Source: Octopus vulgaris (lineage: Eukaryota). From it: 64,000 nt of DNA. Each line of letters starts with the position of its first letter. Position 1 is the first letter of the stretch. The stretch lies in assembly GCA_951406725.2 (NCBI GenBank), contig OX597814.1, positions 74,772,001-74,836,000 on the forward strand, read 5' to 3'. Of this stretch, positions 7,378 to 63,037 are shown in pieces. A program made the position numbers and the translations under genes. The notes under the pieces were generated by a model. It had not been told where the DNA came from, did not search any database, and saw only the letters and a list, made by a program, of their open reading frames with translations.

Positions 7378-7380
<3 letters not shown>

Positions 7381-7685
7381 TTCAAAATAGAAAATTACCG
7401 TTTAACAGGCAATTTTTACATGCTAGAAATAGCAGTCAAACACGGCCAAAGACCACAATTTTATAGCAAATTTCGAAGTAAATGAAAAATAAAAACCTTT
7501 ACCTTTTCATTTACTTCGAAATTTGCTATAAAATTGTAGTTTTTGGCCGTGTTTGGCTGGTATTTCTAGCATCTAAAAATTGCTTGTTAAAGGATAATTT
7601 TCTGTTTTGAAATACGAATATGTTGTCTCTTGACTTTTTATATATGCTAGGCCACTGGTGGTGATATTTATAACGAGTATTCGCC

Positions 7686-9979: not shown

Positions 9980-10063
9980 TTGTAGAAATTCGGCAAAGAA
10001 ATGAATTTTCGGGATGTAGCCTGGAGGGTTTTTCGTATTAATATATATATATATCATCATATA

Positions 10064-10132
<69 letters not shown>

Positions 10133-10181
10133 AAACAAGTCAAAAATAGAAAATGCTAAGATGATTTTATAGTGAATCTTT

Positions 10182-10219
10182 CAGTACCGGTTTCGGTCAT
10201 TTTGAGACCTTTTCAACTG
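10182..10219 (-). ncRNA. Minimal type I hammerhead in the PLE pLTR, U3-A8 covariant core
   Basis: Minus strand CAG-TTGAAAA-GGTC-TCAAAAT-GACC-GAAAC-CG-GTA-CTG; palindromic ACCGGT stem III. Confidence 0.75.
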
Positions 10220-10474
10220 TAACGATTAAATAATTAAATTTTGAAAAATTTAGAAAAATTAGAAGAAAGGTTTTTTTAAAGGAATACTTCCATAGTAGTG
10301 TTCAGATATATGTGGCATTCTGCCTTTCTCTGACTCCCTTGTTTGCACTTGTGTATTCGAGGTCGTTGTGAGTTCTTGAGGGGGTGGGAGTGGGAAAATC
10401 TGGGCTGGTCAGTGGCGACCGGCAGTCGCTGCGTAGGCGTTATACTTAAAGACATTAGTGGGGGTAGAAGGTGG

Positions 10475-10660
10475 AGAAGTAGAAGAAGAAGAAGAAGATG
10501 ACGGTGCCGATGATGATGACGATGAAGAAGAGGAAGGAGAAGGAGAAGATGACGATGATGATGGTGGTGATGACGATGACGACGATGATGATGATAACGA
10601 TGATGATGAAGAAGAAGAAGAAGAAGAAGAAGAGGGAGAAGAAGAAAAAAAAACAGAGAA
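10475..10660. repeat. (GAA)/(GAT) trinucleotide low-complexity tract in the PLE 3' UTR
   Basis: GAA/GAT/GAC triplet runs seen directly. Confidence 0.9.
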
Positions 10661-10775
10661 GGGAGAATATGAATGGGTGAAGATATAGCTGTTTTGGGGC
10701 GATTAGTAATGGATTCTATGGAATGTAATATTTGTGTGTGTATATATATTTCTTTTATTCTTAAGTTGAGCTATA

Positions 10776-12622
10776 TTAATTGTTTGTCGTAGACCCGTTA
10801 AGAAGTGGCCTGTATTTTATAATAAAGAGATTTTCTTTACTTATTCGTTGTCTCGAGGTTGTATCGTCCCTAAATTGGTAGAGGGGGAAAATTCTGAAGT
10901 TTGGTGTTTTTTGTTGGCGCAAGTATCTATGTGTTGGCTAAAAGCTATTTTTCTGTTTTGGGGAATTTTTATCTGGGATCTGTGCAGGGCCATTCGTTTA
11001 CGCAAACCATTTTTTGTTTGGCCTATGTACTGCTCTTGACACCCGGAGCAGGTTAGTGAGTATATTAGGTTCTCCGAAGCACATGTGAAGTTGCTTTTCA
11101 CTGTAAACCGTTGTCCCTGTTTGAAGGAGAACTCAGAACCCTCGATTAGGTAGTCGCATATCCCGCAATTGGGTCTTCCACATTTTTTTACTGTCGGCTT
11201 CTGTGTTGAAGAGTGAATTCGGGCTTGTGTTAGAAGACTTTTCATGGATCTAGGCTGTCTTTTGCTTTTTATGATCGTGTGTGTTTGGAGGATTGTGTTC
11301 ATTCTGTGGTCTTTTTTTAGGAGGGGTATGTTGTGGAGGATGGTGCCGAAGGCTTCGTTATTGAGAGGGTTGTGTGTGGAGATGTATGGTAAGGCTTTTG
11401 GTTGTAAGTTTTTCTTTGATTTGGGATGTCTCAGTTCCTTGATGTTAAGTTGAAGGGCACGTTGAATGCACTTGTCAATAAGTGAAGGTGGATAGTTCCT
11501 GGTGATAAGGGTATCTTTTAGTTCTTGTAGTCGTGTGTCTCTGGTGTTTGCGTTAGAGACTATAGTGCATATCCTTTTTGCTAGATTGAAGGGGATATTC
11601 ATCCTGGTGGGTCTGGGGTGGCATGAATTGAATGGAAGATATTGCTTAGAGTCTGTAGGTTTATAGTATATGTCTGTTTCTATTATATTATTAGCTTTCT
11701 TAATGAGGATATCGAGGAAGGGAAGTTGTTGCTGGCTATATTCCATCGTGAATTGGATGTTTACGTCCAGCCCGTTTAAAATTTCCTGGAATTCTATGAG
11801 TTTTTCTATATTTTTATGCCAAAGAATGAAACAGTCATCTAGATATCTCTTCCAGTTGTTTTCTATGTAGATGGAGAAAGGGCTGCCATATCTTTCTAGA
11901 ACCTAACGATATAGACTGATCTCTAGGTATCCTATGACTAGGTTGGCAAAGGAGGGGGCCATTCGTGTACCCATCGCAGTCCCCGATTTTTGTCGGTAGA
12001 AGTTGTCATTGAAGGCGAAGAAGTTATTTTCCAGGATGAATTTAACCCCTTCTATCACGAATTCTTTTTTGATGCGGTGTGGTAGTTCGTTGGCGTGATT
12101 CTCTAGCCAGAATTGGATTGCCTCTAGTCCTAGGTTGTGGGGGATATTGGAGTAGAGGTTGACTACATCGAAGGATACCAGTATGGTGTTTTGGTTTATA
12201 GTATTCGGTAGGTGATTGAGCATATCTAAGTCGTCCCTTATATAGCTTTTGACATGTTTGAGGAGTGGTTTTAACAGGGTGTCTAAAAAGTTACTGAGGC
12301 GGTGGGTTTCGCATGCGGGACCTGCTATTATGGGTCTCAATTTGAGGTCATTAGGATTAGGGACTTTAATTATTTTGTCTGTGGCTATCTTGCATGCGTT
12401 GCTTATTTTTTCACTTTTGTGGATCTTAGGTATACCGTAGAATTGGCTAGTTTTACTTGTGAAATTGGTCATATAATCATATTCTTTGTCGGTGAGCCCT
12501 GCTTTGTATGGGTTAAATATGGATTTTAGTTCCCTCATTATTTTTTGTTGACTGTAGTTTTGTGCCTTTTCATAGTATGTTGTGTCTTCCAGCATAGAAA
12601 GAACCAAAGTTATGTAAAAGTT
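10776..12622 (-). pseudogene. PLE RT-GIY-YIG ORF with one in-frame TAG (11903-11905) and one frameshift in an A-run (about 10910)
   Basis: ORFs 11903-12607 and 10841-11746 are in the same frame; the gap translates VLERYGSPFSIYIENNWKRYLDDCFILW...QFT. A one-base shift at the A-run restores the C-terminus ...FRIFPLYQF...RISKENLFIIKYRPLLNGSTTNN*. Confidence 0.9.
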
Positions 12623-12623
12623 A

Positions 12624-12683
<60 letters not shown>

Positions 12684-12689
<6 letters not shown>

Positions 12690-13184
12690 TATATAGAAGG
12701 AGCTTCTACAGGACTAGTACTGTTTCATTCAAGAGAAATCTTCAGGAAGCTATTTAACAAGAATTGTATTAGCATTTATACATTTAGGCAGGTTTAAAGG
12801 AGTGGTGGTGGGGGACTTTTTGGGGGTAGGCATAGCGCAAAATATCATACTTGGGGGAGTGGTCAAGGAGTCAGTGGTAAGTTAGATGAAAGAATAGATA
12901 AATAAAAAAATAGATAAATAAAATAAAAAAATAAAAAAATAAAAAAATAAAAATGAAAAATAAAAATAAAAAGATAAAATAAAAGAATAAAAAAAATAAA
13001 AAATATAAAAAATATATATAAAAAAAATATATATATATAAAATATATATATAAAAAAATATATATATAAAAAAAAAAAAAAAAAAAGGGGGGATAGAGTT
13101 ATAGGTAAATAAGGAGATTCTCACTTATACCTATACACACATGTATACGTATCTACACACACATACACACATACACATATATAT

Positions 13185-13231
<47 letters not shown>

Positions 13232-13684
13232 CCTACACATACACACATACATACATACAAATTTACATATACATATATATATATATACAATCCAATACAG
13301 GCCCATTCCCTAATTTTAATTTTATTATCTTCATTTATTACTTTTGTTATCTTTGATCGCTAGGGCTAAGAATCCTGGCAGTGGCTGCCTGTCCATTTGT
13401 CTGTCTACTAGAAGGCAAGTACTCATTCCCGCACGCACACTCATTAGCACGTACATTCACCCATTCGTACACTCATACACATACACGTACGCACGCGTTA
13501 TATTCATACATACAAACATCTACATACGTTCACGTATATACACATACGTACTCGTACCTACAGATTCGTGTCTACACTTTAGGAGGCTAGTCTATACATA
13601 TACACCAATAAATATACATATATATATATATACCCGCACATACATACACACACACACATATATACTCCTACATACAGATACATA

Positions 13685-13734
<50 letters not shown>

Positions 13735-13921
13735 CATACACCTACACACATACATATACACACACATACATACACATATATATACATACACAAACATATA
13801 TACACACACATATATATACATACACACATACACACATACATACGTATACATACATACATACATCCATACATCCATACTTACATGCATTTATACGCATACA
13901 CACACCCATCTATATATATGC

Positions 13922-13953
<32 letters not shown>

Positions 13954-14235
13954 TCACACATACATATACAAATCTACGCACACACATACATACATACACG
14001 TATACGCATACACGCACATACACATATACATGCGTACCCATACACGTGCACACACGCACGCGCATCCATATATATACACACACACACATATATATATACA
14101 CGTGTGCAAGCATACATACATACTCATACGCGCACACATACTTACAAATACATATATGCACACACTTACACACATATATATACATACACATATACATGCA
14201 TACATACATATATGCATACATACACACACGCACTC

Positions 14236-14268
<33 letters not shown>

Positions 14269-14273
14269 TATGC

Positions 14274-14304
<31 letters not shown>

Positions 14305-14942
14305 CACACATACATACACATACATACATATATACATATATAGACATACATACACATACATACACATACACATACGTACACACATATACACACATATATA
14401 TATATATACATATATATATATACACATATACACATACATATATACACATATACATACATATACATACACACACACATACATATATACATATACACTGATA
14501 CACATACCCATACATACACATGCATATACTTATATTACTACATACTCACATATATAAACATATATACATATACACACATACATATATACCTGTACATACA
14601 CATACGCATGCATATATATATATATACATACACATATATACACATATATATATATATATATATACATACACACACACACACACATACATATACACATATA
14701 CATGTATACATACGCAAAAATGATACGCATATATACACATACACACACACAGACAGATGCATATACATACATATATATATATAAACTACATATCTATATA
14801 AATACATACATAATACACATATACACACACATATATATACATTCATGCATATACATATACAAGTATACATACACAAACATACACACACACGCGCACACAT
14901 ACATATACACACACACATATACAAATACATACATACACACAT

Positions 14943-14991
<49 letters not shown>

Positions 14992-15382
14992 CATGTACAC
15001 ATATACATATGTATATATATATCAACAAGGGAGGGTAAAGTTAATTAGTTATTAATCAATTTCATCAAGTGTTCAGTATGTAAAGGGACCATTATTATTT
15101 TGAGTAAACAATGTTAGAGGGAAAAAAATTCTCTAAGTAGTGGAAGAGGCTAAAAAACTTTATTGGCTGCTATTTCTAGAAAGTTTAGTATGTGGCAAAG
15201 TAATTTATTTTATTTTCCTAAGCCCTAATTATATAATATTTTATACATACATACACATACATAAGCACATACATCCACACATACATATGCATATACATAT
15301 ATACACATATACATACAAACACATATACACATATACACACACACACACATACAAGCACATACATATATATACATACATACAT

Positions 15383-15423
<41 letters not shown>

Positions 15424-15706
15424 AATATATATACATATATATTTTTTTACATGCATACATACACACACACACACATAATACATGCGTATATTCCTACTGT
15501 ACCCATGCATTTCTATACATATATACATACATACATACGATACACATATACAAGCGTGCACATATAATATGTGAAAGGTCTTAGGAGAAAAGGTAATCGG
15601 GGGTGCTAGGGGAACAGTGGGGTTGGGGGGGGGGTTGTAGGGGGGGGGGGGGGGGTTGTGTGTGTGTGTATGTATGCATGTAAAAAAATATATATGTATA
15701 TATATT

Positions 15707-15747
<41 letters not shown>

Positions 15748-16138
15748 ATGTATGTATGTATATATATGTATGTGCTTGTATGTGTGTGTGTGTGTATATG
15801 TGTATATGTGTTTGTATGTATATGTGTATATATGTATATGCATATGTATGTGTGGATGTATGTGCTTATGTATGTGTATGTATGTATAAAATATTATATA
15901 ATTAGGGCTTAGGAAAATAAAATAAATTACTTTGCCACATACTAAACTTTCTAGAAATAGCAGCCAATAAAGTTTTTTAGCCTCTTCCACTACTTAGAGA
16001 ATTTTTTTCCCTCTAACATTGTTTACTCAAAATAATAATGGTCCCTTTACATACTGAACACTTGATGAAATTGATTAATAACTAATTAACTTTACCCTCC
16101 CTTGTTGATATATATATACATATGTATATGTGTACATG

Positions 16139-16179
<41 letters not shown>

Positions 16180-16830
16180 GTGTGTGTGTGTATGTGTGTA
16201 TGTATGTATTTGTATATGTGTGTGTGTATATGTATGTGTGCGCGTGTGTGTGTATGTTTGTGTATGTATACTTGTATATGTATATGCATGAATGTATATA
16301 TATGTGTGTGTATATGTGTATTATGTATGTATTTATATAGATATGTAGTTTATATATATATATGTATGTATATGCATCTGTCTGTGTGTGTGTATGTGTA
16401 TATATGCGTATCATTTTTGCGTATGTATACATGTATATGTGTATATGTATGTGTGTGTGTGTGTGTATGTATATATATATATATATATATTGTGTATATA
16501 TGTGTATGTATATATATATATATGCATGCGTATGTGTATGTACAGGTATATATGTATGTGTGTATATGTATATATGTTTATATATGTGAGTATGTAGTAA
16601 TATAAGTATATGCATGTGTATGTATGGGTATGTGTATCAGTGTATATGTATATATGTATGTGTGTGTGTATGTATATGTATGTATATGTGTATATATGTA
16701 TGTGTATATGTGTATATATATATATGTATATATATATATATGTGTGTATATGTGTGTACGTATGTGTATGTGTATGTATGTGTATGTATGTCTATATATG
16801 TATATATGTATGTATGTGTATGTATGTGTG

Positions 16831-16904
<74 letters not shown>

Positions 16905-17183
16905 TGCGTGTGTGTATGTATGCATATATGTATGTATGCATGTATATGTGTATGTATATATATGTGTGTAAGTGTGTGCATATATGTATTTGTAAGTATG
17001 TGTGCGCGTATGAGTATGTATGTATGCTTGCACACGTGTATATATATATGTGTGTGTGTGTATATATATGGATGCGCGTGCGTGTGTGCACGTGTATGGG
17101 TACGCATGTATATGTGTATGTGCGTGTATGCGTATACGTGTATGTATGTATGTGTGTGCGTAGATTTGTATATGTATGTGTGA

Positions 17184-17215
<32 letters not shown>

Positions 17216-17402
17216 GCATATATATAGATGGGTGTGTGTATGCGTATAAATGCATGTAAGTATGGATGTATGGATGTATGTATGTATGTATACGTATGTA
17301 TGTGTGTATGTGTGTATGTATATATATGTGTGTGTATATATGTTTGTGTATGTATATATATGTGTATGTATGTGTGTGTATATGTATGTGTGTAGGTGTA
17401 TG

Positions 17403-17452
<50 letters not shown>

Positions 17453-17905
17453 TATGTATCTGTATGTAGGAGTATATATGTGTGTGTGTGTATGTATGTG
17501 CGTGTATATATATATATATGTATATTTATTGGTGTATATGTATAGACTAGCCTCCTAAAGTGTAGACACGAATCTGTAGGTACGAGTACGTATGTGTATA
17601 TACGTGAACGTATGTAGATGTTTGTATGTATGAATATAACGCGTGCGTACGTGTATGTGTATGAGTGTACGAATGGGTGAATGTACGTGCTAATGAGTGT
17701 GCGTGCGGGAATGAGTACTTGCCTTCTAGTAGACAGACAAATGGACAGGCAGCCACTGCCAGGATTCTTAGCCCTAGCGATCAAAGATAACAAAAGTAAT
17801 AAATGAAGATAATAAAATTAAAATTAGGGAATGGGCCTGTATTGGATTGTATATATATATATATGTATATGTAAATTTGTATGTATGTATGTGTGTATGT
17901 GTAGG

Positions 17906-17952
<47 letters not shown>

Positions 17953-18451
17953 ATATATATGTGTATGTGTGTATGTGTGTGTAGATACGTATACATGTGT
18001 GTATAGGTATAAGTGAGAATCTCCTTATTTACCTATAACTCTATCCCCCCTTTTTTTTTTTTTTTTATATATATATTTTTTTATATATATATTTTTTATA
18101 TATATATATTTTTTTTATATATATTTTTTATATTTTTTATTTTTTTATTCTTTTATTTTATCTTTTTATTTTTATTTTTCATTTTTATTTTTTTATTTTT
18201 TTATTTTTTTATTTTATTTATCTATTTTTTTATTTATCTATTCTTTCATCTAACTTACCACTGACTCCTTGACCACTCCCCCAAGTATGATATTTTGCGC
18301 TATGCCTACCCCCAAAAAGTCCCCCACCACCACTCCTTTAAACCTGCCTAAATGTATAAATGCTAATACAATTCTTGTTAAATAGCTTCCTGAAGATTTC
18401 TCTTGAATGAAACAGTACTAGTCCTGTAGAAGCTCCTTCTATATAATAAAT
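12684..18451. repeat. Giant inverted repeat: about 2.8-kb arms (12684-15474 / 15657-18451), about 180-bp G-rich spacer
   Basis: Unique islands (12690-12900, 13290-13600, 15020-15240) recur as reverse complements (18240-18450, 17540-17850, 15890-16110); mirrored ORFs appear on opposite strands in the track. Confidence 0.95.
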
Positions 18452-18516
18452 TAATTTTACTCTGCTATGTATTGAGTACCTTACTTACTGTGGTTAACCC
18501 CGAATCAACCCGGGAC

Positions 18517-18520
<4 letters not shown>
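15657..18520 (+). mobile_element. Non-coding, microsatellite-rich PLE-type 3' region ending in a pLTR with hammerhead-like motif
   Basis: CTGAAGA-TTTC-TCTT-GAAT-GAAAC-AGTACTA-GTC at 18390-18423, AATAAA at 18445, then a tail of about 65 bp into (AT)n; mirror copy at about 12712-12745. Confidence 0.6.
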
Positions 18521-18583
<63 letters not shown>

Positions 18584-18735
18584 TGACGTATTTTTGCCAT
18601 TTCAATATGGCTAACCCCTAAGGGTGGATGCTACTGTAGTTTTTAGCCCCAGGAGGACACACTCCTCCAGCTGGCCATAGACACACTATCTGTGTCCTGT
18701 CAGTATTTGCAAAGGGAAGTCATCCTTCCCGTCTT

Positions 18736-18805
18736 CAACTTATGATACACACGGACTCGAGTTTCGAGGTATTGACCTCTCGTCAGCGTGTGACAATCAT
18801 AGTTG
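18736..18805 (-). ncRNA. Type I hammerhead ribozyme (copy 1), predicted cleavage after GUC between 18754 and 18753
   Basis: CACACG-CTGACGA-GAGG-TCAATA-CCTC-GAAAC-TCGA-GTC-CGTGTG; stem I extends (CAACTATGAT/ATCATAAGTTG) beyond a UGU/U internal loop. Confidence 0.93.
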
Positions 18806-19088
18806 TCGCCGAGAATTAGATTTCCTTCACAAATACTTATACTTTTTCCAGCGTCCACTGTCGCTGATATTGAAAAAGTGAAATCAAACAATGATAAATA
18901 TCAAAGTGAGTTATATACAGTAGCGGTAACACATCGTGACGTATTTTTGCCATTTCAATATGGCTAACCCCTAAGGGTGGATGCTACTGTAGTTTTTAGC
19001 CCCAGGAGGACACACTCCTCCAGCTGGCCATAGACACACTATCTGTGTCCTGTCAGTATTTGCAAAGGGAAGTCATCCTTCCCGTCTT

Positions 19089-19158
19089 CAACTTATGATA
19101 CACACGGACTCGAGTTTCGAGGTATTGACCTCTCGTCAGCGTGTGACAATCATAGTTG
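19089..19158 (-). ncRNA. Type I hammerhead ribozyme (copy 2)
   Basis: Identical to copy 1, offset by 353 bp. Confidence 0.93.
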
Positions 19159-19420
19159 TCGCCGAGAATTAGATTTCCTTCACAAATACTTGTACTTTTT
19201 CCAGCGTCCACTGTCGCTGATATTGAAAAAGTGAAATCAAACAATGATAAATATCAAAGTGAGTTATATACAGTAGCGGTAACACATCGTGACGTATTTT
19301 TGCCATTTCAATATGGCTAACCCCTAAGGGTGGATGCTACTGTAGTTTTTAGCCCCAGGAGGACACACTCCTCCATCTGGCCATAGACACACTATGTGAA
19401 GGAAATCTAATTCTCGGCGA

Positions 19421-19490
19421 CAACTATGATTGTCACACGCTGACGAGAGGTCAATACCTCGAAACTCGAGTTCGTGTGTATCATAAGTTG
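19421..19490 (+). ncRNA. Type I hammerhead ribozyme (copy 3, inverted; GUU cleavage triplet)
   Basis: CACACG-CTGACGA-GAGG-TCAATA-CCTC-GAAAC-TCGA-GTT-CGTGTG on the plus strand. Confidence 0.9.
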
Positions 19491-19683
19491 AAGACGGGAA
19501 GGATGACTTCCCTTTGCAAATACTGACAGGACACAGATAGTGTGTCTATGGCCAGCTGGAGGAGTGTGTCCTCCTGGGGCTAAAAACTACAGTAGCATCC
19601 ACCCTTAGGGGTTAGCCATATTGAAATGGCAAAAATACGTCACGATGTGTTACCGCTACTGTATATAACTCACTTTGATATTT

Positions 19684-19741
<58 letters not shown>

Positions 19742-19779
19742 CATATATATATATATGATGATATATATATATATATATA

Positions 19780-20960
19780 TATTAATACGAAAAAACCCTC
19801 CAGGCTACATCCCGAAAATTCATTTCTTTGCCGAATTTCTACAAATACTTTTCAAAAATTCCAATTCTAAAGGGTCTAAACAAACCGAAACGCTGGGTGA
19901 TACTGCTAGTAACTATATACATTCTTGCGTTTGTGTGTGAAAATATGAGTGCGAATATGCGTGTGTGTATGTCTGAAAGGTCATATGCGTATGAGTGTCC
20001 GTGTGTGTAAATGTGCATGTGCAAGTGTGTGTATATATGCTTTTGTTATTTATGTTTGTGCATCTGTTAGTGTGACAGATGTGGTCTTTATGAGTGCGGT
20101 AGTGATGTATGCTAGTGTAACTGCGTGTACGTATGGGTGTGAGTGTGTGAGAGAGTGTGTGTGCGTGTGTGTGTGTGTGTACGCGTGTGTGCGTATGCGC
20201 ACGAGAGTGTGAGCGTGTGTCCGTGAGTGTGAGCGTGTATAGGAATATGTGAGGAGGCGTGTGTGTGTGTGTGTGTGTGCACATAAATGCTTTTGTGTAT
20301 ATTTATATGTATTTATTTGTGTGCACATGATGTATAAGGAAGCAAAATTAGAGGCTTGCAGGGGATACATAATGTTGTGGTGTCAGTCTGCGTAGGCATT
20401 TGTGGAACAGCCGACGTTCAGGTGGTATATCTGGATTGTCGGCAGTCAAGGGTTTGAAGTTCACCAGGGGGGAATACCTCTGGTAGCAGCAATAAGATAG
20501 TTCATATTTCCTGCTGACAGATACTACAAGTTAATGGAGGATGTGCAGTCTTTCACGAAGTAGAGCTGGTAATTGCGGCCCTGGGTAAATAGGATGCTAC
20601 CCTATCGACGATGGTTCATTCGATGTTAGGTGTTTCGTTCCGGAGGTCGCGAAGCCTCCGGAACAAAACACCCAGAGTCAAATAACCAAGAAGTGGAATT
20701 CTCTCTATGCCTGAATTTGTATGAGTGCAAGGGCTGTATGTACCTTCTCTTGAAGTCGTTGGCTGTCATGCCCGTGTAGTACCTTGTGGTGCTATCGGGT
20801 GGTATGACGGTAGATCTGTAGACTATAGCCCTTGAGAGGCAGGATCCCCATAGAGCGCAGCAGATACATTTTTGCGCCTGTTGTAGTGGGCAATATTAGA
20901 AGTAATGTTATCTAAGCAGGCGCAACTCACCTTGACGTTATGTGGGTTAAAGAGCCTATA
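19780..20960 (-). mobile_element. Degenerate 3' fragment of a second, different PLE (GIY-YIG domain plus 3' UTR)
   Basis: Minus strand 20960-20540 gives RLFNPHNVKVSCACLDNI...CALWGSCLSRAIVYRSTV...RYYTGMTANDFKRRY, a GIY-YIG-like VY...Y.G.T...FK.R pattern with frameshifts. Confidence 0.65.
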
Positions 20961-31211: not shown

Positions 31212-31259
<48 letters not shown>

Positions 31260-31401
31260 GGATTAAGCACATAAATGTGAAACGAGGTGGATAAAAGAGT
31301 ACTCAAATACCACAGGTAGAGTAATATGTCCGATGGGCGGGAACGTGAAACTCCGAGTAACAGCTTTTGTTATATTTCTGCTGCTTTTAAATAAAAAAAA
31401 A

Positions 31402-31434
<33 letters not shown>

Positions 31435-31629
31435 TACTCTATTTAAAAGCAGCAGAAATATAACAAAAGCTGTTACTCGGAGTTTCACGTTCCCGTTCGT
31501 CGGACATATTACTCTACCGCTGGTATTTTAGTACTCTTTTCCACCTTGTTTCACATTTATGTGCTTACTCCGGCATATATATATATTATGTGCTTACTCC
31601 GGTATATATATATATTATGTGCTTACTCC

Positions 31630-58251: not shown

Positions 58252-59542
58252 CAGGGGCGTTCAATAAGTAATGCCCCTGACCCACTTCCCATAGCAGTAG
58301 AGCAACGAAACTTGACACAGTTATTAGTCTTTTTCTACATAGGAACCACCCAGAGTTACGCATTTCTCCCATCGTTTGATGCGGCTCTGGAGACCATTTT
58401 TGTAGAAGAACCCAGCTTGGTCCTCCAACCTCAACGTGACTTCAGAAATCAAGGCTGCATCATCTGGGAAACGCTTTCCTTTCAAAAACAACTTCATGAT
58501 TGGGAAGAGGTGAAAATCAGAGGGTGCAAGGTCAGGAAAGTAGGGGGGATGGGGAGGAGTTCATAGGCATACGCCTGTGCTTCTAATCTGGCGACAAGCG
58601 AGTTGTGGACCGGAGCGTTGTCCTGCAGGAGGAGGATGCCTTTGCTGATCTTGCCCCGCCTCTTGATTTTGATAACTTCTCTTAATTTCCTCAAAAGTGA
58701 AGCATAATAGGCTCCTGCAATTGTGGTACCCTTTGCCAGGAAATCTGTCATCACTCACTCCGTCCTGGTCCCAGAAGACTGTGAGCATGACCTTGCCAGC
58801 GGAGGGCTGCATCCTTGCCTTCTTTGGAGGGGGTGAGTCACGGTGCTTCCACTGCATTGACTGGGCTTTGGTCTCTGGATCATCGTGATGGACCCAGGTT
58901 TCATCCTGTGTAATCAGTCTTTTGAAAAATTTTGACTCATCTTCTTGGCACATCTCCAAATTCACCCTCGAGCACTCGACGCGTTCTTGCTTCTGGAAAG
59001 GCGTGAGCAACCTGGGAATCCATCTGACAGACACCTTTTGCATATGCAAATGGTCATGAATGATAGTTTCCACAGACCCGGTACTAATCTTGACCTCATG
59101 GGCTATTTGGCGAATAATTATGCGTCGATCTTCCAAAATGGCAGCCTCAACTTGACGGACAGATGCCTCATCAATGGCAGAAGGGGGCGACCAGATCTGG
59201 GAGCTGTTTCCACAGAGTTCCGACCATGTTTGAATTCACGATGCCAGCGTTTTACAAGGTCATATGATGGGGCATCATCACCATAAGTTACTTTGATTTC
59301 ATCAAAAGTCTCCCGTGGTGTGCATCCTTTCAAATACAAAAACCGGATCACTGCTCGACATTTAACAGGCTCCATTTCACACTTGACTCGGTTCAAACAC
59401 CTGTAAATCAGAAACCACAATTAATTCAGAGCTGTAATTTGCCACTTACTCTATAGAGATATAAATAATTGCACATGCAAAATTTCAGCTAGATCAAACA
59501 ACTGCAAGTGGGTCAGAGGCATTACTTATTGAACGTCCCTCG
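58252..59542 (-). mobile_element. Full-length (1.29 kb) mariner (DD34D) with frameshifted transposase
   Basis: TA-flanked TIRs (CAGGGGCGTTCAATAAGTAATGCCCCTGACCCACT); WIPRLL, QDETW, LLQDNA, PPYFPDLAPSDFHLF; at least 3 frameshifts. Confidence 0.95.
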
Positions 59543-61232
59543 TAAGTACCCGAAGAATGTTTTCATTTAAGTAACTATATATAAGATAAGGCTGTTATGC
59601 GAAAGATACTGTTTATTGTAACATCGAATAGAAATATATTCTCTACTGTATCAAGATGTTAATTTGAAATTAAAGTTTTTGACAGATTATTCATTTATGC
59701 TATTATTTAATACAACAGTATTTCCATGATGAATAATTCTAGAAATAATTTGAAACTGTTAAACACTGAGAAATGGGTGGGTTCAAAATCTAATATAATT
59801 TCTAGGAAATATTAACATCGATATATTCGGACACATGGGAAATATTTGTAGTGAAATAGTTAAGCTGATTTAAATCGATCCCAAAAGAATACAGATAGTT
59901 AATCTATTAGCAACTAGGTGATAAACAGCAAAGTCAACCATCATGCAATTTTAACTCTTCATTGTCAAATTAATGTAATTTTTGTCTGTCGGTGAAATTT
60001 CTAATCCTGAAGAGAGTTTTATCAAATACAAAATAAAGATCTAATTTTAATCATTATGTTTAAGCGTTTCCAAGAGTATTGGTGGTGCATGTGAAATGGT
60101 TTAGCTTCAATAGTGAAACTAAATTGCTACCAAAGAATTGCTTCATCGAAAGCTTACCTTGAACTTGCACATTTAATTTTAATGTAAGCACAAAACGATA
60201 CTTTTTGGTGTGGAGCGTAATGTCAGGTATGAACCCTAGTTCATATTTTTTTTCAATTCCATCTTCAGAGGGCTGGAAGACGAACTTGCAACTCATAGGA
60301 AATAGAACACAAAATGTAAAAAGAAATAATGTTCCAGGTCATTTTGCCCGAGCGCTCTACTGATTCTCTGATGCTCACCCATTTTTCATACGCATATTAC
60401 TTATGACCATATATCGAATTAGTGCCGACACGAATTAATAACTTGAACTACATATATATATTTGGCCATTAATTACAAGTGGATACATACTTATTCATGT
60501 TTTCTTTCTACTATGGAGACTTGAGAATCACTTGACAAGGAAAAGTGTTTTAAGAAGCAATGAATATTTTAAAAGAAAGCTTGTTAAATATACTGTAATA
60601 CATGTGTGTGTGTGTACTAGATATTAGCTTTGGTAAAGAAACAGGTGCAACTGAAGAAAAAAGAACATGGGAGAGTTCTTTCATATCACAAGCGTTAAAA
60701 CGATGTCTAATTAAGAAAAAGATAAAACAGCAATGTAATTCAATGATAGCAAATGCTTGTTAAATGTAACAAGCATTTATAATGATAAACGCGCGCGCGG
60801 GGTACAAGCACAAATGCATATGCATCATCATTATTATCATCATTACAAATGCCATCAATTAACGGAGTGTTGAGTTACTGTAACATCAGACCAGTATTTA
60901 CCAGTCATTTTACTTTAGATCGTTCTTGAGAGTTATCAAAGTCCGATCATTCCTCCATTCTTAGGAGATCGATCATGGTGATATGAATCCAAATTTAGAT
61001 TAAATACTAAAATATATCAAGTGGAATAGAGAAGACTTGAAATAGACCTTCCTCTTACCTATAGTGAAGACAGTGACAACCTCCACTATCCAACTATCTA
61101 CGAAAGTAACAGACTGTTTGGTAACATCAAGACGTAGATTTTTAAAGAATTTATTTGGCGGAAAATCTGGGTTTTGCCCTTTGCTACTCAAAAAGTGACA
61201 GTCCAACAGATAGCTAGAAAGACTAAATATTT

Positions 61233-61963
61233 GGATCGTTACCTTTTGACGTACAGATTTTAAAAATGATTTTTTTGTAACTAAACACTATCAAACTTCG
61301 GACACTGGTAGAATCTGTCATATAAAACATGTTTTACTCTTAGCATTTTTGAGAAAAACATATATTTACGAAGTTATTCCACATTAAAGTAGTAAAATTT
61401 CGGTAATTTCAACAAATCAATGACGTGTATTCAGCTGAATAAAATTACTGCCGTTGTTTGTCAACAAGAACTTCCGGCGGTGTATTTTTCGTTTGTCACT
61501 GTTATTTATGACAACCCTAACCCTAAAACCCTAACCCTAAAACCTTAACCTTAACCCTAACCCTAAAACCCTAACCCTAAAACCCTAACCCTAAAACCCT
61601 AACCCTAAAACCCTAACCCTAACACTCTAACCCTAAAACCCTAACACTAAAACCTTAAAGCTAAAACCAGTACAAACGCACGAACGATGTCATAAATAAC
61701 AATGACAAACGAAAAATACACCGCCGATGGTTGTTGACAAACAACGGCAGTAATTTTATTCAGCTGAATACACATCATTGATTGGTTGAAATTACCGAAA
61801 TAGGACTACTTTAACGTGAAATAACTTCGTATATATACATTTTTCTCGAAAATGCTAAGAGTAAAACATGTTTTATATGACACATTCTACCAGTGTCCGA
61901 AGTTTGAAAGTGTTTAGTTACAAAAATTATTTTTAAAATCTGTAGGTCAAAAGGTAAAGATCC
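61233..61963. mobile_element. MITE with about 280-bp TIRs (GGATC...GATCC), apparent 8-bp TSD AAATATTT, Merlin-like
   Basis: 61233-61513 is inverted at 61688-61963; AAATATTT at 61225-61232 and 61964-61971. Confidence 0.8.
61514..61668. repeat. Telomere-like (CCCTAA)/(CCCTAAAA) array inside the MITE
   Basis: AACCCTAAAACCCT 14-bp periodicity seen directly. Confidence 0.9.
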
Positions 61964-63037
61964 AAATATTTTAACCCTCTTTTGTCGTTGCAAGAATAAT
62001 CGATTGTGGACTTATTCAAATTTTTGACTGAACTGTATGTATTCAGTTTGATTCATGCTGAGTGACCTGATATTCCTGAATAAACTTTTAACTAAACGGG
62101 CATATCGGTATAATATGCTTCATTTTCTCATAATTTTTATTTAGTCTAGTACTGACTGTCTACACAGCTACTGCCAAAGGTGAAACGATTTTTTTTTTTG
62201 TATTCAAATTTCACAAGAAATAATTTAACCTTTCGTTCTTCCGAAGTCAATAAAATAAGCACAAATAAAATTCTACAATAGAGTTATTAAAACAGTCCGT
62301 ATGTCTAGCTAAAGTGAAAACGGAGATCAATATTTCATTATCTCTTGAATGGATTACTTTCGAGTATTATCTAATGCTGTTTTTGAACAATGTTCAGTTC
62401 CTTTATAAAGCATTAAAAGTTGTAATGCAAAAATTAGCGATATGCAAATTGGTTATGTGTATATGATGTCCAATACTTTGTTTATCTGTATCATTCTTGA
62501 TGCAATATAATTCTTCTGATGCTAATCTTTTGATTTTTGTACAAGACTAATTGCTCAAAGTCGAGACAGCTAAATCTTCTGCAGTGTTGTTACTCATACA
62601 TTTTCAAATCCAGTTAAAAAGTAACTTGGCACTGAGAAGTAACGAAACTAAATAATCTATAATATATAATCAAACTATAATTTTAGCTACTACCCGCTTC
62701 TCAAAACATCAGTATTAATTTCACTTTTCATCGACATCGTGGCTAAATCTCCAGTTGTATTTAGAGGAGGACAATCGATTCAGTCATTTGTTTATCTTAT
62801 TGATTCCAGGTGATCGAAAAACTCTGGTGATATTTAAATTTAGCACATCAAGTTTTCAAATCAATCAAGTTTGAGGAACAAATTCATTATTTAATTGATT
62901 ATTTAGGAATAGGTTACATACATATTACTTGGAAGGCATAATATAGCTTCTAACATGCAGAATAGAATTATATACTAAAATTGCATTTTGCTCAGCTCTT
63001 TCATTTTTTATCTAATGTTCAATGCAATTTCTTTTTT

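Follow-up and report, generated by a model that had tools for sequence, protein, structure and literature searches.

An inverted, two-armed retrozyme insertion in Octopus vulgaris, probably made by PLE-type two-ended priming on what may be a circular RNA

Results

Structure of the locus

The window, i.e., the whole stretch of DNA that was analysed, comprises 64,000 nucleotides of Octopus vulgaris contig OX597814.1, and coordinates given without a locus name refer to it. Between two (AT)n tracts, located at 18518-18581 (TRF) and at 19687-19782, lies a two-armed inverted insertion that occupies 18580-19688. The left arm (18580-19395, minus strand) is 816 nt long and contains 2.3 units of a 353-nt repeat, running from unit phase 65 to phase 174, where phase 1 is the base directly after the predicted hammerhead cut. 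The right arm (19395-19688, plus strand) contains 294 nt from phase 276 to phase 216 and shows one mismatch to its left counterpart. The arms meet head-to-head (5′-to-5′) at 19395 with a 1-nt overlap, joining phase 65 to phase 276. The left 3′ end, GTCACGAT followed by ATAT, is located at phase 174 and belongs to a site that we call A; the right 3′ end, TTTATCAT followed by ATAT, is located at phase 216 and belongs to site B. The original prediction had placed the flip of the array at 19395, with both blocks pointing outward in the ribozyme sense and both 3′ ends running into (AT)n at different unit phases, neither of them at the cut. All of this was confirmed, the left arm being minus and the right arm plus in the ribozyme sense. 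The interval it gave, 19286-19688, includes the right 3′ end but not the left one at 18580.

The hammerhead core, a stem I of 6 bp, a stem II of 5 bp and a palindromic helix III are present in all three copies in the window. The first predicted type I hammerhead (18748-18792, minus strand, cut between 18754 and 18753) is composed of CUGACGA, stem II, GAAA, the palindromic CUCGAG helix III and GUC^; the second is located at 19101-19145 on the minus strand (cut between 19107 and 19106). Both were found by a motif and stem scan with pattern matching. The third predicted hammerhead (19434-19478, plus strand) has a private C-to-T change at the cut nucleotide (19472, GUU^). A 5-bp hairpin is predicted at 19615-19630 (plus strand), 13-16 nt before site A, within a conserved enclosing helix in which unit positions of about 116-122 pair with 183-189; site A precedes the 3′ strand of this helix and site B follows it. 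Both elements are predicted from 12 aligned copies that represent four subfamilies. All four subfamilies keep the hairpin just before A, and the helix shows two-sided changes in 6 of 37 pairs, which represent few independent changes. The sequence between site A and site B, here referred to as the tail (19647-19688, plus strand), is terminal on the B arm only.

On both sides the locus is flanked by high-copy repeats and (AT)n. The region 10128-19688 forms one (AT)n nest with three PLE-type insertions, of which the retrozyme pair is the last. The first is a 5′-truncated autonomous PLE of family 784 (10128-12620, minus strand; RT and GIY-YIG, broken frame) that ends at its own A site in (AT)n. 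The second, a 2.8-kb palindrome at 12684-18518, consists of two arms derived from the microsatellite-rich 3′ region of PLE family 775b; its A end is at 12684 and its B end at 18518, and the two end sites are 67 nt apart. An assembly fold-back was considered as the origin of this palindrome and rejected on its two-armed architecture. The outer flanks of the nest (9980-10128 and 19689-19844) are inverted copies, 93% identical, of a high-copy repeat end facing (AT)n and carry identical microsatellite interruptions; they stem either from an inverted duplication or from two insertions of a further family that targets (TA)n. Elsewhere in the window, an inverted repeat (61225-61971, 92%) flanks an (AACCCT)-rich telomere-like array (61513-61668), short palindromes are found at 31241-31589 and 7378-7614, and a frame at 58564-59235 resembles what we take, from its motifs, to be a fragment of a mariner-type transposase.

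The retrozyme family and its two fixed 3′ ends

The 353-nt unit is non-coding, low in GC, tandemly arranged and dispersed, and it folds far better than shuffled sequences (z = −7.5). The 2.8 Gb genome contains 442 exact matches to its 31-nt ribozyme core. An Rfam search gave no match at the gathering score, and none of the insertions examined includes a linked ORF or a terminal repeat; PLE frames in their vicinity possess ends of their own. With one predicted type I hammerhead motif per unit and a short, non-coding, dispersed unit, the repeat can be classified as a non-LTR retrozyme. The feature in the window is one of hundreds of young insertions of this repeat with its predicted self-cutting RNA motif.

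Loci were picked by the intact 31-nt ribozyme core. The 99 core matches listed on contigs C1-C3 correspond to 59 loci, the window included, with 61 insertions; 20 further insertions were added to this set, giving 81 sampled insertions in all. Clusters shorter than 100 nt, alignments below 92% identity, the second copy in L090 and overlapping loci were dropped before counting. One locus, L034, was left out only of the junction-phase and arm-overlap tests and of the cut-crossing count for unselected arms. The C1-C3 set consists of 30 two-armed inverted and 31 one-armed insertions, and the two-armed pattern is present in 41 of the 81 sampled insertions.

The original prediction regarded the 3′ endpoints as arbitrary and circularly permuted, which turned out not to be the case. 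Among the 91 terminal 3′ ends of the 61 insertions, 51 are located at site A (phases 171-174) and 30 at site B (phases 216-221), the distance between the two sites being 46 nt. The remaining 10 ends lie at other phases, three of them at 210-213. Since the two sites hold most of the 3′ ends (81 of 91), the endpoints are fixed and only the 5′ ends scatter; 5′ ends are slightly more frequent near site A than expected (13 compared to 7.3), an observation made post hoc and not relied on. Fixed ends had been named as an outcome that speaks against PLE mobilisation, yet two fixed ends are the signature of the PLE tail as described in the available text of two studies (PMC11167929, PMC8557442). The stop on an AT dinucleotide, also predicted, is seen at this locus but does not extend to the family, in which 27 of the 51 A ends stop at phase 171 (CAC followed by TATA). 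The expected enrichment of (AT)n was found: 81 of the 91 ends adjoin (AT)n, against 4.5% of random flank positions (1853/40832).

One-armed copies end mostly at site A (A 23, B 4, other 4; n = 31), and two-armed copies combine the two sites (24 A+B, 4 A+other, 2 B+other, none AA or BB; n = 30). When the 20 extra insertions are included, there are 35 two-armed copies in which neither end lies outside A and B, and all of them are A+B pairs (p = 3e-11 against 0.5). L032 and L034 as well as two L071 copies look like duplicates, so the independent counts are slightly lower (34/34). No coupling of the sub-ends 171/174 with 217/220 and no correlation between arm lengths were detected. Arms reach a length of 2122 nt.

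Two sister subfamilies use the same sites A and B: R2, which is about 83% identical to the main family, and R3 (358 nt), which is about 60% identical. R3 loci (L172-L200) often have flanks of AT-rich unique DNA and not (TA)n, which may reflect a different protein partner. Further hammerhead-bearing repeats with two-armed structure or (AT)n-anchored ends are located at L116:2870-3130 and L046:6300-6780.

Autonomous PLE families with the same footprint

The genome contains at least five young PLE families with an RT and, at the C terminus, a GIY-YIG domain preceded by a CX4CxxC linker (775a, 775b, 781, 784 and the L161 family). The first four are 45-67% identical to one another, have many identical intact frames and end at two fixed sites in (TA)n. 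Every two-armed copy of these families with both ends in view is an A+B pair (775a 4, 781 4, 784 6, 775b 6; 20/20, none AA or BB), the 775a and 784 pairs having been hand-picked as inverted and the 775b loci chosen with a B-end query. Comparison with PLE insertions of the same genome, which the original prediction had proposed, thus revealed the A+B, (TA)n footprint in four autonomous families. Naiad elements also target (TA)n. The fifth, more distant family was two-armed in 1 of 20 loci, but these loci were selected differently, so that this number only hints that the footprint is specific for a class of PLEs. To measure target duplications of the PLEs, ends outside microsatellite DNA were sought with two patterns, which gave 0 matches and are uninformative; the ends sampled from autonomous families are all in (AT)n.

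The tails of the sampled families are about 30, 34, 34-36 and 67 nt long, compared to 46 nt in the retrozyme, and a sensitive blastn search detected no homology between the unit and the ends of the five families. None of the sampled families has a 46-nt tail, and the footprint indicates the enzyme class, PLE, and not one family. The PLE sample comprises 150 scored out of 6136 GIY-YIG candidates, and the genome holds more PLE lineages than were sampled. All candidate families carry a linker of the Neptune/Nematis type. The CX2-5CxxC linker of Neptune is also described for Nematis (PMC8557442), and an assignment to Neptune by the linker motif alone is unproven.

A retrozyme in L055 sits in (AT)n at the end of another PLE. 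At L106, a unit match 1.3 kb behind a PLE ORF was considered as the pLTR of the partner and rejected, as it is an unrelated older R2 insertion and the ORF has its own ends. Three loci (L312:3835-4703, L321:3830-4627, L317:3890-4640) contain short derivatives of an L161-type PLE terminus with periods of 551, 536 and 538 nt, respectively; each derivative has a separate deletion junction and one minimal hammerhead, and ends in (AT)n at the family 3′ end. L312 crosses the new junction twice (1.56 units) and L321 appears to do likewise; the three loci are candidates for retrozymes being born from a PLE end.

Target site duplications

Target duplications were measured in unique DNA, the window locus being embedded in (AT)n. 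All six two-armed copies in unique DNA, two of this family (L064, L083) and four of R3 (L175, L184, L187, L192), have exact duplications of 12-13 bp; swapped-flank controls (n = 30) gave at most 6 bp, and 1 of 15 one-armed copies had a target duplication. The duplications on two-armed copies fit a staggered double-strand cut with both 3′ ends serving as primers.

Taken together, the two fixed ends, the A+B pairs, the (AT)n flanks, the duplications and the same footprint in autonomous PLEs argue for PLE-type two-ended priming, for which this genomic evidence is strong. The inverted 5′-truncated arm, the one-sided tail and the short target duplication all correspond to marks of PLE-type insertion. 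The fixed paired ends and the PLE footprint make a firmer case for PLE-type mobilisation than the original prediction had argued. We infer that a PLE protein very probably mobilised the retrozyme in trans, and priming from both target ends is quite probable.

The template of the insertions

At seven non-CpG polymorphic sites, arm-to-arm comparisons gave 1 discordance in 202 (shuffle mean 54, minimum 31), and 38 of 39 minor alleles were common to both arms. Laps within one arm were discordant in 2 of 326 cases. Rare variants were found in every covering copy of one insertion in 21 instances, 12 of them in both arms, against 128 variants seen once; 17 rare variants are fixed across 2-6 laps in 13 insertions, and 11 haplotypes are uniform. 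Of the 42 arms that were not selected for the ribozyme, 41 read past the cut site, where chance alone predicts 2.0 stops, and all 146 crossings of the cut site are free of indels. A higher count, 96 of 111 arms crossing the cut, was set aside because it is inflated by selection on the ribozyme core; the same selection would hide any one-armed copies that stopped by running off at the cut.

One haplotype over arms and laps, together with intact read-through of the cut site, suggests that each insertion repeats one monomer haplotype, as rolling around a circle would give. Both observations favour a circular monomer as template, towards which we lean, although they may also be accounted for by a young source array of uniform sequence or by repeated jumps on a single cleaved molecule. 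The evidence for a circular template is moderate, circles and cleavage being predicted from the genomic sequence. Copying of more than one unit from a probably circular template, as originally proposed, is in line with these data.

It is unlikely, but deserves consideration, that the same PLE two-ended priming used an uncleaved multimer, linear or circular, transcribed from a young and nearly uniform source array. Four insertions (L038, L043, L060, L083) carry a variant in both arms but in some laps only, and in L060 both arms have the same lap pattern, with the majority base at the same lap. The latter is at odds with a monomer circle and in line with a heterogeneous multimer template or with subsequent gene conversion. 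In addition, hammerhead cleavage is described as unneeded for insertion in vitro (PMC11167929), one of nine Xenopus retrozyme dimers is reported to be cleaved in vitro (10.64898/2026.07.22.740005), and a sample of 81 insertions leaves room for uniform source arrays. However, the rare variants fixed over 2-6 laps and the 11 uniform haplotypes would require repeated reduction to a monomer bottleneck and renewed multimerisation. Of the lap-specific variants, 43 occur in one arm only and none is common to both arms at the same lap, and 5′ truncation alone would shorten arrays in each round, in contrast to the arm lengths of up to 2122 nt.

Junctions between the arms

The 35 clean junctions comprise 23 with overlaps of 1-10 nt, 3 blunt ones and 9 with small inserts. 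The two 5′ phases at a junction are independent of each other: 6 of 30 pairs lie no more than 30 nt apart, against a shuffle mean of 6.1. All 30 clean pairs have a B arm that continues beyond site A, into template that the A arm also copied. Both findings argue against fold-back and against L1-style twin priming.

In L1 twin priming, two primers from two target strands generate an inversion that is joined by microhomology, as here, and L1 inversions show short junction overlaps comparable to the 23 observed. Intact-looking LINE frames are also common near the loci. It is nevertheless very improbable that ordinary twin priming by a LINE protein gave rise to the inversions. The second L1 primer varies in its internal position, and the two arms are copied from separate, non-overlapping parts of the RNA, whereas here both start sites are fixed and internal, and the arms copy overlapping template. 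Moreover, both outer ends are fixed without poly(A) or a free 3′ end, and the footprint matches that of PLEs of the same genome.

Even less credible is an inversion generated by fold-back, i.e., self-priming of one cDNA or antisense template, or by chimeric-read assembly: palindromic Penelope junctions have been read as self-priming (PMC3846280) and the 19395 junction is without read confirmation, no spanning piece being among the listed short assembled contigs from four sequencing runs, but besides the independent phases, each arm has a different fixed end site, a terminal tail is present on the B arm and absent from the A end, and target duplications at both outer ends in unique DNA accompany a pattern that recurs in half of the sample. 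Equally hard to sustain is growth and homogenisation of the arrays at the DNA level (unequal crossing-over, gene conversion) after insertion of a monomer: this route has been proposed (10.64898/2026.07.22.740005), and L038 and L083 share a variant of the junction-proximal lap in both arms, as arm-to-arm conversion would give, but with 43 arm-private against 4 partly shared variants conversion is too rare to make the arms identical, the median divergence is 0.33%, and the exact A and B ends and the target duplications are kept.

Discussion

The locus in the window is likely a two-armed non-LTR retrozyme insertion made by PLE-type two-ended priming on a probably circular RNA monomer. A borrowed PLE reverse transcriptase-endonuclease would write the insertion in one step. 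Its cut in (TA)n would be staggered by about 12 nt, and the two DNA ends would prime at the two fixed RNA sites, one at A and one at B, which lies 46 nt beyond A. The RNA, probably a circular monomer, would then be copied outward from both DNA ends, and the two cDNA 5′ ends might be joined by short-homology end joining. Priming by one end alone, mostly at A, would result in a one-armed copy, usually without target duplication. A more specific version, in which one PLE protein dimer acts on a single circular RNA, is tentative, and we would not quite commit to it. Here the RNA would be recognised by its fold without sequence likeness, and the 12-nt stagger, the obligatory site pair and both cDNAs rolling round the circle would follow one scheme.

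Elements of this mechanism are known from PLEs. A purified PLE protein has been shown to cut both strands at AT-rich DNA, and two internal RNA start sites define the tail (Frangieh 2024, PMC11167929). PLEs are described with an inverted copy, a tail at one end and duplications of 8-10 bp (Craig 2021, PMC8557442; Arkhipova 2013, PMC3846280). The EN+ PLEs in these studies, including Poseidon PAc in vitro (PMC11167929), share with the retrozyme the head-to-head arms, the one-sided tail, two internal starts, AT-rich targets, a short duplication that inverted copies carry and some one-armed copies lack. In contrast to them, the retrozyme is without an ORF, its tail is longer (46 nt compared to 30-40), its duplication measures 12-13 bp compared to 8-10, and its arms are multi-lap copies of one short unit. 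The strict A+B pairing seen here is unstated in the available text of PMC8557442, PMC3846280 and PMC11167929.

The metazoan non-LTR retrozymes (Cervera and de la Pena, 2020, PMC7229834) likewise have a short non-coding unit with one type I hammerhead each and are dispersed as dimers to hexamers. That study shows cleavage and circles, which are predicted from sequence alone here; it proposes that circles are copied into tandem cDNA, with PLEs as a strong candidate. The fixed ends, inversions, tail and (TA)n targeting reported here have no counterpart in its available text. Hammerheads with a palindromic helix III are reported to cleave as dimers and to be spared in monomeric circles (Cervera 2014, PMC4209133), and circular templates and PLEs as mobilisers have been proposed (Cervera 2014, PMC4209133; Cervera 2020, PMC7229834). 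Mobilisation of retrozymes by PLE machinery has also been proposed on the basis of Xenopus data on co-occurrence and on homology to pLTRs (Li, Clavereau, Pollet 2026, 10.64898/2026.07.22.740005) and is therefore already in print. Our conclusion is the same, but local tandem growth is favoured there, while pLTR homology is not detectable here and the evidence consists of the insertion footprint and the uniformity of haplotypes. A literature search, with most subscription journals outside its range, found no report of fixed paired ends, inversions or target duplications for retrozymes.

In the studies considered here, the enzyme that moves retrozymes, the use of circles as template and the origin of PLE inversions and tails are open questions. 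The insertion footprint can assign the class of the mobiliser where sequence homology fails. The family allows a direct test, as it provides the start sites 171-174 and 216-221, a predicted stagger of 12 nt, a 353-nt substrate and four young PLE families. If a PLE dimer indeed acts on a single circle, one mechanism would explain the PLE tail, PLE inversions and the tandem arrays of retrozymes, and a programmable insertion reaction, two-ended and rolling, would have a minimal substrate in the 353-nt circle.
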